IMG/VR virus record: IMGVR_UViG_2713896903_000003
Length of the DNA stretch: 5,539 bases
Source: a virus
Taxonomy: Duplodnaviria > Heunggongvirae > Uroviricota > Caudoviricetes
Reading direction: 5' to 3' (one strand)
In this document: positions 1,864-5,514 of the stretch, piece by piece
How the letters are laid out: each line of letters begins with the position of its first letter
How positions within the stretch are numbered: the first letter of the stretch is position 1
The notes under the pieces: model-generated
Database searches by the model: none
What the model was told of the DNA's origin: nothing
The model's input: only the letters and a program-made list of their open reading frames with translations
Position numbers and translations under genes: made by a program

Positions 1864-2934
1864 TTACCCCCTGAAGCCCGGTGGAATTTCGGTATCTGGT
1901 TCAGAAATGTGATTCACGCAACGCTGGTTGTTCGTACCGCTTACCGGGAGCAACCAGGGGTTTTCAAAATTCCGGTCCGGTCCAAAAAACGTCGTCGCTC
2001 GCTGAACAAATTCCGTTCCCGTTTTCCCGGTAGCCGCCAGGTATCTTGCGTAACGCCTCACACCATCCAGCATGGCTTCTGGTGGCACCCCCTCGCGTAA
2101 TCTGGCCTTCCAGGCACTGAAAGCGGATTTCTTCGGGTTTGCCCCGGCACGCAACGGGTACTCCCGCCAGACCTGTTCGAACACATCCGGATAATCCACT
2201 CGTCCCACAGACTGCCCGGTGTTTTCCGGGACTACCCGATCGGCTTCCCGCTGAATGGCGGAATCGGCTTCAGGCTGCTGCAGTTGGTGTGATTGCTCCG
2301 GCCTTGCGGTCATCACCTGCTGCACAGCGCCCGAATCGGCTTTCAGCGCATACGCTGAATCGGCTTCCGGTGTCGTGCCTGCTGGCTGACCAGGATTGAC
2401 GGTCTGAACACCCCCTGCCTGGTTCGTGGCGTTTTTTACGCCATGGACCATAGTGTTTTGATCTTCTTGATCTGTATCTTTATCTGTATCTTTATCTGTC
2501 GTGACTCGTCGTGACATGTGCGTGACATTTCGTGACGCGCCGTGACAATCGCCATTTTGTTCCCGCTTTCTTTCCCTCTCTCGCTGCGCCCTCTTGCGCT
2601 CTGCAGGAGATTTTGCGGTTTGCGAAATATTGCCGTTGTCCTCTTTAAGCACTTGGCGTTTTTCCCATCCAGTGATTAAATCACCATCAAGTACCCGCCC
2701 CTGCATCGTCTGCAAAATTGAATCAATTACCTCTTCTGTCACGTCGAGCGCACTTGCCAAATCTTCTGTCGTGACATCAATGTGACCTCGCGTGACATTT
2801 CGTGACGCGCTCACCAGGAGGTGGATATACACTGCCATCACTGTTGCAATTGGCTGCCCTGACACCCTGGCAATTGTTCGCCACTTAGGGTCATTTGGCA
2901 TGTCATGCCATAATCTGAGCCAGGCGTTAGCCAT
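1864..2934 (-). CDS. Putative phage replication initiation protein (O-like replisome organizer), 356 aa, with origin-like iterons inside the coding sequence
   Basis: Long ORF. Preferred start is ATG 2934-2932 with AAGAGGTGA SD; the track begins at GTG 2940. N-terminus (AWLRLWHDMPNDPKWRTIARVSG...VYIHLLVSAS) fits the winged-helix pattern of phage/plasmid replication initiators, and the C-terminus (FEQVWREYP...AFSAWKARL...NPWL) fits a motif common in such initiators. Sits where lambda O sits, downstream of the cro/cII equivalents. Contains two CGTGAC iteron arrays. Confidence 0.7.
   Translation of the reverse strand: MANAWLRLWHDMPNDPKWRTIARVSGQPIATVMAVYIHLLVSASRNVTRGHIDVTTEDLASALDVTEEVIDSILQTMQGRVLDGDLITGWEKRQVLKEDNGNISQTAKSPAERKRAQRERERKREQNGDCHGASRNVTHMSRRVTTDKDTDKDTDQEDQNTMVHGVKNATNQAGGVQTVNPGQPAGTTPEADSAYALKADSGAVQQVMTARPEQSHQLQQPEADSAIQREADRVVPENTGQSVGRVDYPDVFEQVWREYPLRAGANPKKSAFSAWKARLREGVPPEAMLDGVRRYARYLAATGKTGTEFVQRATTFFGPDRNFENPWLLPVSGTNNQRCVNHISEPDTEIPPGFRG
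2470..2499. repeat. Tandem 12-bp repeat ATCTGTATCTTT (about 2.5 copies), encoding (TD/KD)n in the initiator protein
   Basis: Read directly: atctgtatcttt at 2470-2481 and 2482-2493, then atctgt at 2494-2499. Immediately abuts iteron array 1. Confidence 0.8.
2500..2546. repeat. Iteron array 1: five direct CGTGAC repeats at 10/11/10/10-bp spacing (candidate origin of replication)
   Basis: CGTGAC at 2500, 2510, 2521, 2531 and 2541, i.e. helical-turn phasing. Lies in the middle of the initiator gene, analogous to lambda ori inside O. Followed by a pyrimidine-rich tract encoding a K/R/E-rich linker. Confidence 0.65.
2732..2810. repeat. Iteron array 2: four direct (C/T)GTGAC repeats plus one inverted copy; the final 20 bp are identical to the end of array 1
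   Basis: GTGAC at 2771, 2782, 2792 and 2802 (11/10/10 spacing). Inverted CGTGAC at 2738-2743. tcttctgtc duplicated at 2732-2740 and 2762-2770. cgtgacatttcgtgacgcgc is identical at 2791-2810 and 2521-2540. Confidence 0.6.
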
Positions 2935-3005: not shown

Positions 3006-3431
3006 TCAATGCACAGCCACAATATTTCCTGCAGGGCCACCACGATTCATCTGGTTGAAACCAGCGATCGCCACTGCGACAAAATCATCAGCGTCTCTCA
3101 CCAGTCGCTCCCGCGTCTCCACCAGCTCCCGAAAATAAGCTGAACTGTGGCTGCGCATTCTGGCCACCAGCAAAGGTGGCATTGCCTTTTCGATCGCTGG
3201 TAACAACGCCTGAATTTTTTCAACTGCATCAGGGGTGTCTTTCTCTACCCAGCGGAAAATTTTCTGGGTATTGCGAGCCAGGGCTTCCGGATGGCTGTCG
3301 TCATACAGTTCAGGAAACGTCATACCCAACTCAAAATAAGCCTGGGTTATTCCAGCTGCTGGAACTTTTTCGCCATCAGGACGCGCCCAGGCATTCATCG
3401 CCATGCGGATGTGTTCATGCTTGATTTTCAT
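3006..3431 (-). CDS. ydaT: YdaT-like protein (functional CII equivalent of Rac/CP-933P-type prophages), 141 aa
   Basis: ATG at 3431 overlaps the TGA of the upstream HTH gene (ATGA). GGAG SD 8 nt upstream. Size and position, second gene after the Cro-like HTH, match the ydaS-ydaT arrangement. Name assigned from memory of that family, not from a search. Confidence 0.6.
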   Translation of the reverse strand: MKIKHEHIRMAMNAWARPDGEKVPAAGITQAYFELGMTFPELYDDSHPEALARNTQKIFRWVEKDTPDAVEKIQALLPAIEKAMPPLLVARMRSHSSAYFRELVETRERLVRDADDFVAVAIAGFNQMNRGGPAGNIVAVH

Positions 3432-3730
3432 GAATCAACTCCATCAGATAAGCATGCACTACAATCACCTTCAGCATGAACTACATGTGTTTGCCCCAAA
3501 CGAATACCGCTCGCATACTCAGGCCAAATAAGCTCCCAATCATGGGGTCGTAGCTCCGCCCTACTTACTTGGCCTTCCGTCGCAGATTCGATCATAAGGG
3601 CGCGGGTTGGAGATATAGCTGCTCGTCCAGACGCCATTTGCGATAAGTAAGATGGCGATACACCAAGTCTGGCCGCGAATTTCTTAGCATCACCAACCCT
3701 CAATGATTTAATAAACTCTTTTAATGTCAT
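3428..3730 (-). CDS. ydaS: Cro-like XRE-family HTH regulator (YdaS-like), 100 aa
   Basis: ATG at 3730 with GAGGAAGG SD. HTH signature (AKKFAARLGVSPSYLSQMASGR). Divergent from the repressor gene across an operator-rich intergenic region; translationally coupled to the downstream gene. Confidence 0.7.
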   Translation of the reverse strand: MTLKEFIKSLRVGDAKKFAARLGVSPSYLSQMASGRAAISPTRALMIESATEGQVSRAELRPHDWELIWPEYASGIRLGQTHVVHAEGDCSACLSDGVDS

Positions 3731-3827
3731 ACCTTCCTCGGTTTAGTGTTTTTTTGCGAGTTTAGTGTTTAATAAACCATTAAGTCAAGTATTTGCTTGT
3801 TTAGTGATTACTAAAGATAATTACCAC
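3731..3827. promoter_or_regulatory. Divergent promoter/operator region (OR-like genetic switch)
   Basis: Three direct GTTTAGTG repeats (3741-3748, 3760-3767, 3799-3806). Perfect inverted repeat GTTTAaTAAAC (3767-3777). Imperfect palindrome TTAGTGATTACTAA (3801-3814). Leftward candidate promoter: TTGACT (minus, 3788-3783) with TAAACT at 18-nt spacing. Rightward candidate promoter: TTGCTT (3793-3798), 17 nt, GATAAT (3816-3821). Confidence 0.6.
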
Positions 3828-4199
3828 ATGCAAAAAAAAGAAATTCGCCGTTTACGTCTCAAGGAGTGGTTTAAAGATAAAACTCTGCCACCCAAAGAGA
3901 AGAGCTACCTATCTCAACTAATGAGTGGGAGGGCCTCGTTTGGAGAAAAGGCTGCCAGAAGAATAGAGCAAACATACGGGATGCCGGAAGGGTATCTGGA
4001 TGCGGAATACGCAGAACAACCGGAAGCTTCTCCACCACATGCGGGGTTAACGTCTAATCAACTGGAATTATTGCAGATTTTTTCAGCCTTCCCTGAGGAT
4101 GAGCAACGCCAGATAATCAGCGAGTTAAAGCAGAAAAAAGAATCAATGGAAGATCTCATAGCGAGATGGATTGCGGCGCAAAAATGCCGCCGCGCCTGA
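3828..4199 (+). CDS. paaR2: Prophage repressor / transcriptional regulator of the three-component TA operon (PaaR2-like; DicA/cI functional analogue), 123 aa
   Basis: ATG at 3828 preferred over the GTG at 3765 used by the ORF track. No SD, and the -10 ends 6 nt upstream, suggesting a leaderless mRNA like lambda cI from PRM. N-terminal HTH-like segment (LSQLMSGRASFGEKAARRIEQ). Divergent to the Cro-like gene. Symbol from memory of the CP-933P module. Confidence 0.65.
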   Translation: MQKKEIRRLRLKEWFKDKTLPPKEKSYLSQLMSGRASFGEKAARRIEQTYGMPEGYLDAEYAEQPEASPPHAGLTSNQLELLQIFSAFPEDEQRQIISELKQKKESMEDLIARWIAAQKCRRA

Positions 4200-4219: not shown

Positions 4220-4411
4220 ATGAATAGAGCCCTTTCACCAATGGTTTCTGAATTTGAAACCATTGAACAAGAAAACAGTTACAACGAATGGCTGCGCGCG
4301 AAAGTAGCAACGAGCCTTGCAGATCCGCGCCCAGCAATTCCCCATGACGAAGTTGAGCGCAGAATGGCAGAACGCTTTGCTAAAATGCGCAAGGAACGGA
4401 GCAAGCAGTAA
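4220..4411 (+). CDS. paaA2: Small antitoxin-like protein (PaaA2-like), 63 aa
   Basis: ATG 4220 with GGAGG SD. Stop TAA 4409-4411 lies 1 nt before the toxin ATG. Small, charged, likely partly disordered protein immediately upstream of a ParE-like toxin. The ORF-track start at 4166 is rejected as it has no RBS. Confidence 0.65.
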   Translation: MNRALSPMVSEFETIEQENSYNEWLRAKVATSLADPRPAIPHDEVERRMAERFAKMRKERSKQ

Positions 4412-4412
4412 A

Positions 4413-4691
4413 ATGTTACCCGTGTTATGGCTTGAAAGCGCAGATACCGACCTAGATGATATAACTAGTTATATTGCTCGTTTCGACATAGATGCGGCTG
4501 AACGCTTATGGCAGCGATTAAGGGGTTGTGTGCTGCCGTTATCCGAACATCCGTATTTATACCCACCAAGCGACAGAGTACCTGGCTTGCGTGAGATTGT
4601 AGCCCACCCTAACTATATAATTCTATACCGCGTAACAACATCAAGCGTTGAAGTAGTAAACGTGATCCACGCAAGACGCCAGTTTCCCTAA
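4413..4691 (+). CDS. parE2: ParE/RelE-superfamily toxin (ParE2-like), 92 aa
   Basis: ATG 4413 tightly coupled to the upstream gene. C-terminal pattern REIVAHPNYIILYRV...VEVVNVIHARRQFP is typical of ParE/RelE-fold toxins. The ORF-track start at 4317 would overlap the antitoxin gene and is rejected. Confidence 0.7.
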   Translation: MLPVLWLESADTDLDDITSYIARFDIDAAERLWQRLRGCVLPLSEHPYLYPPSDRVPGLREIVAHPNYIILYRVTTSSVEVVNVIHARRQFP

Positions 4692-4752
4692 CTTTCACTA
4701 CCAATAGAAACATAACAACCGCAACGACTTTATCAAAAGCGTTGTGTTTGTT

Positions 4753-4794
4753 ACGCCCCGTGGTTTAGTTTTTACTTGACTTAAGTTTAATGTT
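4753..4794 (+). promoter_or_regulatory. OL/PdicB-like rightward promoter with operator: TTGACT (4766-4771), 16 nt, TAAACT (4788-4793); inverted repeat GTTTAtTAAAC (4782-4792); GTTTAGT half-site (4753-4759)
   Basis: Sequence cttgacttaa...gtttattaaac is the reverse-complement counterpart of 3767-3789 in the OR-like region, so the same repressor likely binds both. Oriented toward the ydfA-like operon. Confidence 0.5.
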
Positions 4795-4980
4795 TATTAA
4801 ACTAAAAAATACCAACCCCCCCCGCCCCACAGAACGCCGGGCAATACTTCGAGTTACCAGGCAGTGGTCAGGGGTTAAGTAGCCAGCCCGAGGCGTAAGA
4901 ACATGACGGCAGGGTTCAACTTTAACTATGCAGCAGGTTTTTGTTCCGCTACCCCGGCGTTAAGGGGAAATGAGGTCAAC

Positions 4981-5136
4981 ATGGATACTATCGATCTTGG
5001 CAACAACGAATCTCTGGTGTACGGCGTGTTTCCCAACCAGGACGGCACGTTCACCGCGATGACGTATACCAAAAGCAAAACGTTTAAAACCGAAAATGGT
5101 GCCCGTCGCTGGCTGGAAAGAAACTCAGGTGAGTGA
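4981..5136 (+). CDS. ydfA: YdfA-like small protein, 51 aa
   Basis: ATG 4981 with GAGGT SD. An in-frame ATG at 4903 (77 aa) is an alternative start. Size and position, first gene after the repressor-controlled promoter, match ydfA of the Qin dicB operon. Symbol from memory. Confidence 0.55.
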   Translation: MDTIDLGNNESLVYGVFPNQDGTFTAMTYTKSKTFKTENGARRWLERNSGE

Positions 5137-5137
5137 T

Positions 5138-5266
5138 ATGGATTTCGACACAATCATGGAAAAGGCTTACGAAGAATACTTCGAAGGCCTTGCCGAAGGC
5201 GAAGAAGCTCTCAGCTTCAGTGAGTTTAAACAGGCGCTTTCCAGCCCGGCAAAATCTAACGGCTGA
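5138..5266 (+). CDS. ydfB: YdfB-like small protein, 42 aa (MDFDTIMEKAYEEYFEGLAEGEEALSFSEFKQALSSPAKSNG); below the ORF-track cutoff
   Basis: Hand translation. ATG 5138 with AGGTGA SD, 1 nt after the ydfA-like stop. 42 aa matches the size of Qin YdfB. Confidence 0.55.
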   Translation: MDFDTIMEKAYEEYFEGLAEGEEALSFSEFKQALSSPAKSNG

Positions 5267-5295
5267 TAAGCGAAGCAGCACCGCGAGGAATCAGT

Positions 5296-5514
5296 ATGCA
5301 GAAACGAGAACCCGTCATCATCGCGCCAGACTATACCGATGATGAACTTTATGAGTGGATGCACCAGAAAATTAAGGCAGCGCAGGACCTGAAATGGGCC
5401 AATGAAGCCAGGGCTAAGCAGGCCGAAAATCTGTCTGCTCTGGAAAAAGATATTACCAATCTGGAAAAAGCAGCGGCATTAAGTATCGCCAGAATGATTA
5501 CATACCCGCGTTAA
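5296..5514 (+). CDS. ydfC: YdfC-like small protein, 72 aa
   Basis: ATG 5296 with GAGGA SD at 6 nt. Stop TAA 5512-5514. Third gene of the ydfABC-like series. Confidence 0.6.
   Translation: MQKREPVIIAPDYTDDELYEWMHQKIKAAQDLKWANEARAKQAENLSALEKDITNLEKAAALSIARMITYPR

Follow-up and report, generated by a model that had tools for sequence, protein, structure and literature searches.

The inverted promoter-operator repeat downstream of the PaaR2 repressor operon in an E. coli prophage corresponds to PL/OL of CP-933P

Results

Genes of the immunity region

The window, by which we mean the whole stretch of 5,539 nucleotides analysed here, is the immunity region of a lambdoid Escherichia coli prophage. 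The region is present at near full length in 591–593 of 5,426 complete E. coli genomes (~11%), the best match, 99.1% identical, being a pig ETEC strain. The minus strand carries an O-like replication gene (1864–2940), ydaT (3006–3431; Pfam YdaT_toxin) and ydaS (3428–3730; Pfam YdaS_toxin/HTH_3), which encodes a Cro-like regulator and is the first gene of the PR arm. The plus strand carries the repressor gene paaR2 (3828–4199), the antitoxin gene paaA2 (4220–4411; Pfam PaaA2, E = 1e-19) and the toxin gene parE2 (4413–4691; Pfam ParE_toxin, E = 2e-16), followed by the PL arm, which starts with ydfA (4981–5136; Pfam DUF1391, E = 2e-28) and continues with a ydfB-like (5148–5266) and a ydfC-like (5296–5514) open reading frame. 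The 123-aa product of paaR2 gave no domain in the Pfam search of the window proteins; we identify it as PaaR2, a CI-like repressor, because it matches the PDB entries 7nkv/8c3k ('Phage repressor protein CI') at E = 6e-40. Downstream of ydfA-ydfB-ydfC, the PL arm of the closest genome goes on to dicB, a DUF1482 gene and an exonuclease gene, and PL therefore controls a toxic cell-division inhibitor.

Two outward-facing promoters with a shared operator

OR, the region between ydaS and paaR2 (3731–3827), contains two divergent promoters, overlapped by repeats at 3741, 3760 and 3799. One of the promoters is PR, found on the minus strand by the promoter scan, with its −35 hexamer TTGACT at 3788–3783 and its −10 hexamer TAAACT at 3764–3759, separated by a spacer of 18 nt. 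The inverted repeat GTTTAGTGTTTAATAAAC (3760–3777) overlaps the spacer and −10 of PR and falls within the region that is footprinted by PaaR2 and YdaS in the prophage CP-933P. A further inverted repeat, GTTTAGTGATTACTAAAG (3799–3816), fills the spacer of PRM, the predicted promoter of paaR2, whose hexamers TTGCTT (3793–3798) and GATAAT (3816–3821) were read from the sequence, and an extra GTTTAGT half-site on the plus strand (3741–3747) adjoins the start of ydaS. The ATG of paaR2 is at 3828 and the gene is leaderless, as has been reported for CP-933P (PMC8630535).

The second promoter, PL (4776–4803, plus strand), lies 72 nt past the parE2 stop and faces away from paaR2-paaA2-parE2, towards ydfA. 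According to the promoter scan, its −35 is TTGACT (4776–4781), inside an exact 12-nt inverted copy at 4773–4784, and its −10 is TAAACT (4798–4803), leaving a spacer of 16 nt; transcription is predicted to start at about 4809–4811. Both hexamers are embedded in plus-strand inverted repeats, which together make up OL. The first, repeat a, reads GTTTAGT-TTTT-ACTTGAC (4763–4780), differs from GTTTAGTN4ACTAAAC by two mismatches and holds the PL −35 in its right half. The second, repeat b, reads GTTTAAT-GTTT-ATTAAAC (4785–4802) and is a perfect 7-4-7 palindrome over the PL spacer and −10; it, too, has two mismatches to GTTTAGTN4ACTAAAC, and it equals the OR repeat at 3760–3777 in 16 of 18 positions. 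At PL and PR alike, the −10 is made up of the closing 5 nt of an 18-bp palindrome and the T that follows. The PL spacer of 16 nt results from the spacing of the palindromes, which are 22 bp apart, each hexamer having the same place within its palindrome. The repressor operon is thus bracketed, as an earlier note on this DNA had proposed, by two outward-facing promoters, PR (minus strand) and PL (plus strand). The two have identical TTGACT/TAAACT hexamers and share an operator palindrome, sites of the GTTTAGTN4ACTAAAC type being present in both regions with no other site as good in the window.

Position of the repeat and comparison with chance

The earlier note had reported the reverse complement of 3767–3789 to recur at 4765–4792. 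The first of these positions is correct and the second is 10 nt too low: the recurring block CTTGACTTAAGTTTAATGTTTATTAAAC occupies 4775–4802, with CTTGACTTAA at 4775–4784. The GTTTAGT half-site that had been placed at 4753 exists, and its position is 4763–4769. Aligning the reverse complement of 3760–3790 with the second copy bore out the similarity itself, and the proposed 5-nt insertion turned out to be one of several possible solutions. The MAFFT alignment of the two copies differs from that version, which we regard as a by-product of the internal repetitiveness of the region; in a functionally sensible alignment, the copies differ by 2 nt in the spacer, which is 18 nt long in PR and 16 nt in PL.

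Several statistics describe how unusual the resemblance is. The exact 12-nt inverted repeat is formed by TTAAGTCAAGTA (3780–3791) and TACTTGACTTAA (4773–4784), and with up to one mismatch, the word is found in those two places only, two matches being reached in 0 of 200 shuffles of the window. When both intergenic regions were simulated at their own AT-rich composition, 13 of 5,000 runs produced an inverted word of at least 12 nt. The word GTTTATTAAAC is found exactly at 3767–3777 on the minus strand and at 4792–4802 on the plus strand, a result matched by 0 of 200 shuffles. Exact GTTTAGT occurs four times in the window, each time inside the two regions, compared with an expectation of 0.52 and with 0 of 200 shuffles that reach four. 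Finally, the 18-bp pattern GTTTAGTNNNNACTAAAC, allowed up to three mismatches, has its sites at 3760–3777, 3799–3816, 4763–4780 and 4785–4802 only, a number that 0 of 200 shuffles reach; these four carry one or two mismatches, and the next best match elsewhere in the window has at least four. Given the shuffle and simulation statistics, the repeat is real rather than a product of chance, and only its coordinates and the gapped alignment need mending.

Upstream of OL, an inverted repeat (4713–4753, plus strand) between the parE2 stop and the operators folds as RNA into a hairpin of −18.5 kcal/mol (z = −3.66), with 0 of 200 shuffles equally stable. It is not followed by a U-tract, and the promoter and terminator scan returned no intrinsic terminator between parE2 and PL, only this U-less hairpin, which probably ends the paaR2-paaA2-parE2 transcript or insulates that transcript from PL.

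The element in CP-933P

The repeated element is the PL933P/OL published for CP-933P, a cryptic prophage of E. coli O157:H7 EDL933 that is the Sp12 of strain Sakai; PL933P with its operators OL1-3 was described by Jurenas et al. (2021, mBio 12:e02947-21; PMC8630535), and the finding is correct and has been known since 2021. The text of that paper places PL933P 'upstream of the RAE2 locus' (PMC8630535). Its location is settled as window positions 4692–4809, because the primers map there: F-PL matches 4692–4712 (21 of 21 nt) and R-PL matches 4788–4809 (21 of 22 nt, the window having one more A).

The published experiments supply what sequence comparisons cannot. The −35 and −10 hexamers of PL933P are identical to those of PR933P, a PL933P-gfp fusion is active and is repressed about 100-fold by PaaR2 and likewise by the Cro-like YdaS, and even without induction, leaky PaaR2 already lowers the activity of PL933P, as it does with PR933P (PMC8630535). 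Both proteins footprint the 97-bp ydaS/paaR2 intergenic region, EMSA and footprinting having been confined to this OR fragment, where 18-bp palindromes with the half-site consensus GTTTAGTAA are recognised (PMC8630535). The OL sites at 4763–4780 and 4785–4802 are the same kind of 18-bp palindrome as in this published consensus. At the sequence level, the element in the window agrees with PL933P/OL in position and direction, in its hexamers, in its palindromes and in its identity to the cloned fragment; as to the number of operators, OL has two repeats with up to two mismatches, all other candidates there have at least five, and no third strong repeat with fewer than five was found at OL, whereas PMC8630535 names three operators and defines in a figure a second type of operator repeat. 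The same authors found that PaaR2 forms octamers in solution and suggested lambda-like looping, and they noted that PaaR2 is without a peptidase motif and is not SOS-inducible (PMC8630535). A literature search for newer work on PaaR2 and its DNA found nothing past the 2021 paper and a paper on the structure of YdaT.

The DNA studied in O157:H7 is nearly the same as ours. Between the window and the O157:H7 copy, there is 100% identity over the 97-bp OR, and OL is the same from 4763 to 4803; PaaR2, YdaS, PaaA2 and ParE2 differ by 2, 1, 0 and 0 amino acids, and YdaT differs at 23 of 141 residues. Compared with EDL933, the window has three substitutions at about 4754–4762 and one extra A at 4804–4809, which could shift the PL start by 1 nt. 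The main difference is further downstream, where PL of the window leads into intact ydfA, ydfB and ydfC whereas O157:H7 has lost ydfA and ydfB, and the region downstream of the promoter was for that reason given no function in PMC8630535. Two predictions of the earlier note thus have experimental backing from CP-933P: that the second copy is an active promoter, which PL933P-gfp shows for the near-identical EDL933 DNA, and that one repressor controls both arms, the repression having been demonstrated in an essentially identical system (PMC8630535).

Boundary of the immunity module

The extent of the module was sought by searching complete E. coli genomes with window positions 4692–4990. In thousands of genomes, homology to this query starts at its positions 112–138, corresponding to 4803–4829 of the window, that is, at the PL −10 and the predicted start. 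The loci that we fetched have diverse repressors upstream of this point: two types of the LexA family, a 139-aa hypothetical protein, an HTH protein, RacR of the K-12 Rac prophage and DicA of the Qin type. Their alignment diverges completely upstream of ATACCAACCC and has about 95% identity downstream of it. Similarly, in 114 viral contigs that were chosen by the leader alone, at least 11 types of promoter and operator meet the leader at the same junction. Each type that was examined (L002–L008) has its own palindrome both in its OR and in the spacer/−10 of its left promoter: GGTAAC...GTTACC, ATACCCAYRGGTAT, GTAC-N5-GTAC, TTAGGC-N5-GCCTAA in Rac and TTGTTAGTCATGACTAACAA for DicA (Oc; PMC3441716). 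Matrices of the longest shared word and of k-mers between OR and OL have a strong diagonal for the PaaR2 and Rac types and a weak one for types with short operators, and the type-specific palindromes are clearer by direct reading than in either matrix.

Within the PaaR2 type, the viral-contig copies differ from one another at two places only, the ~10 nt that precede the first palindrome (~4752–4762) and the A-run after the −10, and 4763–4803 is unchanged in all of them but one (L060, with TTGGCT in the −35). These mosaic boundaries, by which everything from OR to the PL −10 is swapped as one block, agree with the view that the toxin-antitoxin (TA) genes belong inside the immunity cassette, a prediction of the earlier note that had been stated in print for CP-933P (PMC8630535).

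Operator pairs in relatives of PaaR2

To look beyond E. coli, we collected 27 loci from other species with PaaR2 relatives of 44–76% identity, from the genera Xenorhabdus, Photorhabdus, Yersinia, Erwinia, Raoultella, Enterobacter, Morganella, Massilia, Mycoavidus and others. Upstream of the repressor gene, inverted repeats of the OR type can be recognised in all but one of the 27 (L035). Exactly one pair of 18-bp palindromes, spaced 23–24 bp, was found in 18 of the 27, and in all 18 it lies downstream of the repressor gene, 451–2269 bp from the gene start and in the same orientation. The pairs keep the site homologous to OL repeat a, with ACTTGAC or ACTTTAC in the first palindrome, and TAAAC plus T closes the second. 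No further pair was found elsewhere in these loci, and none in 560 shuffled loci. The stretch that separates the pair from the repressor gene differs among the loci, holding nothing, the TA pair or other ORFs, and some of the relatives combine the same N-terminal domain with a longer C-terminal part (210–218 aa), putatively of the S24/LexA type. Considering the boundary and the conservation of the pair together, we conclude that PL/OL belongs to the repressor module and that the TA pair is its cargo.

The leader of the PL transcript

Beyond the junction lies the leader of the PL transcript (4809–4980, plus strand), which is kept across immunity types. This stretch of ~170 nt, from the PL start to ydfA, is common to at least 11 of them, including Rac of K-12, with different genes downstream. 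When the whole window was scanned against Rfam at E ≤ 1, the only match was a spurious lncRNA, and neither the leader nor the operators had any. As a single sequence, the leader folds no more stably than its shuffles (z = +0.76), and the RNAalifold consensus of 70 distinct leaders had 27 pairs, none of them backed by a compensatory change, with a covariation term of −0.33, the leader being too conserved for this measure to decide. Identity with the Rho-dependent terminator of Rac was rejected, as that terminator, 'trac', lies inside racR (PMC4150792).

Discussion

We are highly confident that positions 4763–4803 of the window are PL/OL of the CP-933P/Sp12 type of immunity, a sigma-70 promoter built from two operator repeats for PaaR2 and YdaS. 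Repression most likely works by promoter occlusion. While the state is stable, PaaR2 would bind the two palindromes that contain the PL −35 and −10, and YdaS would do so once the switch has occurred; with the OL repeats occupied, RNA polymerase would be excluded and the left arm shut off. Direct binding of both proteins to both OL repeats, and the exact contacts there, we infer by analogy with OR. The spacing of 22 bp, about two helical turns, could allow two dimers to bind cooperatively, and a PaaR2 octamer bridging OL and OR over about 1.0 kb is plausible given the octamers seen in solution. The TA genes are cargo in a slot between the repressor gene and PL, comparable to rexAB of lambda.

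One may ask whether control of the left promoter is what the OL repeats are there for. They could be mainly architectural, the distal anchor of an octameric PaaR2 loop that tunes PR and PRM, with control of the left promoter being secondary; the OL of lambda likewise tunes PRM through looping. The octamers and the lambda analogy drawn by the authors (PMC8630535), as well as the OL–OR distance of ~1.0 kb, fit such a role, and a loop could tolerate the variable distance of the pair, 0.45–2.3 kb, among the relatives. In every relative, however, the hexamers are fixed within the repeats, and the spacing of the repeats, 22–24 bp, corresponds to promoter spacers of 16–18 nt; as the spacing of the repeats equals that of a promoter, it is the promoter itself that appears to be the selected feature. 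Moreover, PL on its own, with no OR in cis, is still repressed about 100-fold (PMC8630535), and we consider a mainly architectural role unlikely.

Slightly less probable still is that the physiological regulator of PL is YdaS and not PaaR2, the promoter being turned down after derepression. PL933P-gfp is indeed repressed about as strongly by YdaS as by PaaR2, and the same OR repeats are footprinted by the two, but the uninduced, leaky PaaR2 is already sufficient to lower PL933P activity (PMC8630535) and the left arm, which encodes DicB in related genomes, needs silencing in the prophage state, when PaaR2 is made and YdaS is not. As with CI and Cro at the OL of lambda, the roles of the two proteins at PL are compatible. 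That the similarity has arisen by chance between AT-rich, promoter-like stretches, or is an inert scar of recombination, is very improbable: both regions are AT-rich, the 12-nt inverted word does appear in ~0.3% of the composition-matched simulations and GTTTAGT with one mismatch is not enriched across the window (18 against 13.6 expected), but four independent motif statistics each had 0 of 200 shuffles, 18 of 27 loci from other species have the paired architecture downstream of their PaaR2 homologue and shuffles never have it, 4763–4803 is fixed in the leader-selected viral contigs (with the exception of L060) while the preceding ~10 nt vary, and promoter activity and repression have been published (PMC8630535).

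The element works like OL/OR of lambda, as the earlier note had suggested, but it is not a member of the lambda family in the strict sense. In both systems, the repressor gene is flanked by two clusters of operators overlapping outward-facing early promoters, a CI-like and a Cro-like protein share the operators, the repressor can form octamers and the stretch from the repressor gene to PL holds accessory genes, which are rexAB in lambda and paaA2-parE2 here. Adjacent operators in lambda are also 22–24 bp apart from centre to centre. The differences are nevertheless substantial. OL and OR are ~2.4 kb apart in lambda but only ~1.0 kb apart here (centres of the repeats at ~3768 and 4793), PaaR2 is without the S24 autocleavage domain, the operators are 18-bp palindromes of 7-4-7 geometry with only two strong ones at OL, and instead of an N gene, PL is followed by the conserved leader of ~170 nt and ydfA.

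The element explains how one small repressor silences both arms of this type of prophage, one of which, the left, leads to the cell-division inhibitor DicB, and the ParE-family TA pair inside the immunity module can penalise the loss or replacement of the module. The architecture was published in 2021 for CP-933P and is here confirmed as recoverable from sequence alone; the boundary at the PL start, the recurrence of the operator pair in other genera and the leader common to the immunity types generalise the published picture and do not change it. Going further, we put forward two ideas, both tentative and rather doubtful at present. The first is that PL/OL is an ancestral, portable module of the family of repressors with the PaaR2 N-terminal domain: the hexamers lie at the same position of the two palindromes, the family spans Enterobacterales and Burkholderiales, and its C-terminal domain varies, being either a coiled coil like that of DicA or longer and probably of the S24 type, as does its cargo. 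The second is that the leader of ~170 nt is a functional RNA element, with a possible role in attenuation or in the processivity of transcription of an early-left operon that has no N.

Among known prophages, the comparison with the DicA operators Oc and Ob, which the earlier note had drawn, is apt, as dicBp has a DicA palindrome in its spacer and the C-terminal domain of DicA is homologous to that of PaaR2. The DicA/DicC system of Qin has the same downstream operon, ydfA-ydfB-ydfC and then dicB (Bejar/Bouche; PMC3441716, PMC10448788), and, as here, the palindromic operator that lies in the spacer/−10 of its left promoter has a second copy between dicA and dicC. The C-terminal domains of DicA and PaaR2 are 28% identical over 60 aa (E = 3e-6), and their N-terminal, DNA-binding domains have no detectable similarity. 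The operators of the two have the 7-4-7 geometry and the core TTAGT-N4-ACTAA in common but differ in their outer bases, TGTTAGT in Qin and GTTTAGT in the PaaR2 type. Cross-specificity with DicA was considered and dropped, because neither type of operator matches the other locus at up to three mismatches: the DicA operator TTGTTAGTCATAACTAACAA (Oc; PMC3441716) has 0 matches in the window, and the Qin-type locus has none to the PaaR2-type repeat. The Qin-type locus (L008) differs also in having no annotated gene between dicA and dicBp, and thus no TA cargo, and in its short leader, which shares only the last ~48 nt with that of the window.

Rac of E. coli K-12 differs from the window in its repressor, in the sequence of its operators and in its downstream genes (ydaF, sieB, kilR), and it has no TA genes. 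The order of ydaT, ydaS, a divergent repressor gene and a left promoter is the same, however, and this racR-proximal promoter, TTGACA...TATAGT, is wrapped in palindromes of the RacR type, TTAGGC-N5-GCCTAA. These palindromes recur in the racR/ydaS intergenic region, with a shared word of 14 nt, and the leader transcribed from the Rac promoter is the same as that of the window.

The early-left leader and its flanks

The leader transcribed from the early-left promoter PL, about 170 nt long (window 4809-4980), opens with a C-rich 5' end, ACCAACCC(C/A)CCCCGCCCCACAG, and sequence comparison shows it to be near-identical, from the predicted start site on, across at least 11 immunity types, that of K-12 Rac included. 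The conserved copies precede at least three different downstream genes, and Qin/dicA-type loci retain only the last ~48 nt. The leader had no match in Rfam and its fold stability was not unusual; no covariation was seen among the copies because the sequences are too conserved. Its role may be that of an attenuator or of a processivity signal, or it may simply be a linker used in recombination.

Compared with window 4970-5300, the post-leader sequence of O157:H7 TT12B (L001 3501-4450) departs at about window 4970; ydfA and ydfB are absent from it and a minus-strand gene annotated 'ECs_2282 family zinc-binding protein' is present, whereas the window's lineage carries intact ydfABC after PL and, in the closest genome, dicB as well. 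This divergence, with the absence of ydfA and ydfB, is the reason that the 2021 study of the O157:H7 prophage (Jurenas et al., mBio, PMC8630535) had no function to offer for the ORFs that follow PL933P.

On the other side of PL, between the parE2 stop codon and the operator OL, lies a stable hairpin (window 4713-4753; z = -3.66) that has no U-tract, and several other immunity types have at the equivalent position canonical terminators with a GC stem and a T-run, such as GAACCCGCATTCATTGCGGGTTTTTT in L002. The hairpin probably blocks read-through of the paaR2-paaA2-parE2 transcript into the arm running from ydfA to dicB.

Features of the immunity and replication genes

At the ydaS/ydaT junction, the sequence TTGATTTTCATGAATCAA (window 3421-3438) covers both the ydaS stop and the ydaT start; it agrees in sequence with the published YdaT operator, 5'-TTGATTN6AATCAA-3' (PMC9986795), and coincides with the position assigned to PRE933P in the 2021 study. 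YdaT differs from its O157:H7 copy at 23 of 141 residues (window 3006-3431 versus L001 1815-2240), whereas PaaR2, YdaS, PaaA2 and ParE2 are near-identical to theirs, which places a recombination boundary at, or just past, this junction.

In four loci (L024, L027, L029 and L032, where the repressor gene begins at 2501 or 2152), from Yersinia, a Martelella-labelled contig and Mycoavidus, the N-terminal DNA-binding domain of PaaR2 is followed by a longer C-terminal part of 210-218 aa, a putative LexA/S24-type domain judging by its sequence; their OR and OL operators are also GTTTAGT-N4-ACTAAAC. By contrast, the C-terminal domain of PaaR2 itself (window 4014-4184) shares homology with that of DicA from the Qin-type locus L008.

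Within the O-like replication gene, (C)GTGAC(A) repeats form two clusters, at window 2497-2552 (tcgtgactcgtcgtgacatgtgcgtgacatttcgtgacgcgccgtgaca) and 2768-2812 (around 2770-2810). They look like candidate iterons of an origin that lies within the initiator gene, a placement similar to that in lambda O.

In the viral contig L060 (IMG/VR 2547132252_000010), a PaaR2-type copy has its -35 element changed from TTGACT to TTGGCT (equivalent to window 4779); the prophage is likely in decay, and the change a promoter-down mutation that affects its PL. Escherichia phage Evi (L009, LR597642.1, 6001-7273) has the same immunity region with paaR2-paaA2, together with OL and the leader, 98% identical, and since this record was deposited as a phage genome, the PaaR2 immunity type may still be present in inducible phage and not in cryptic prophages alone.
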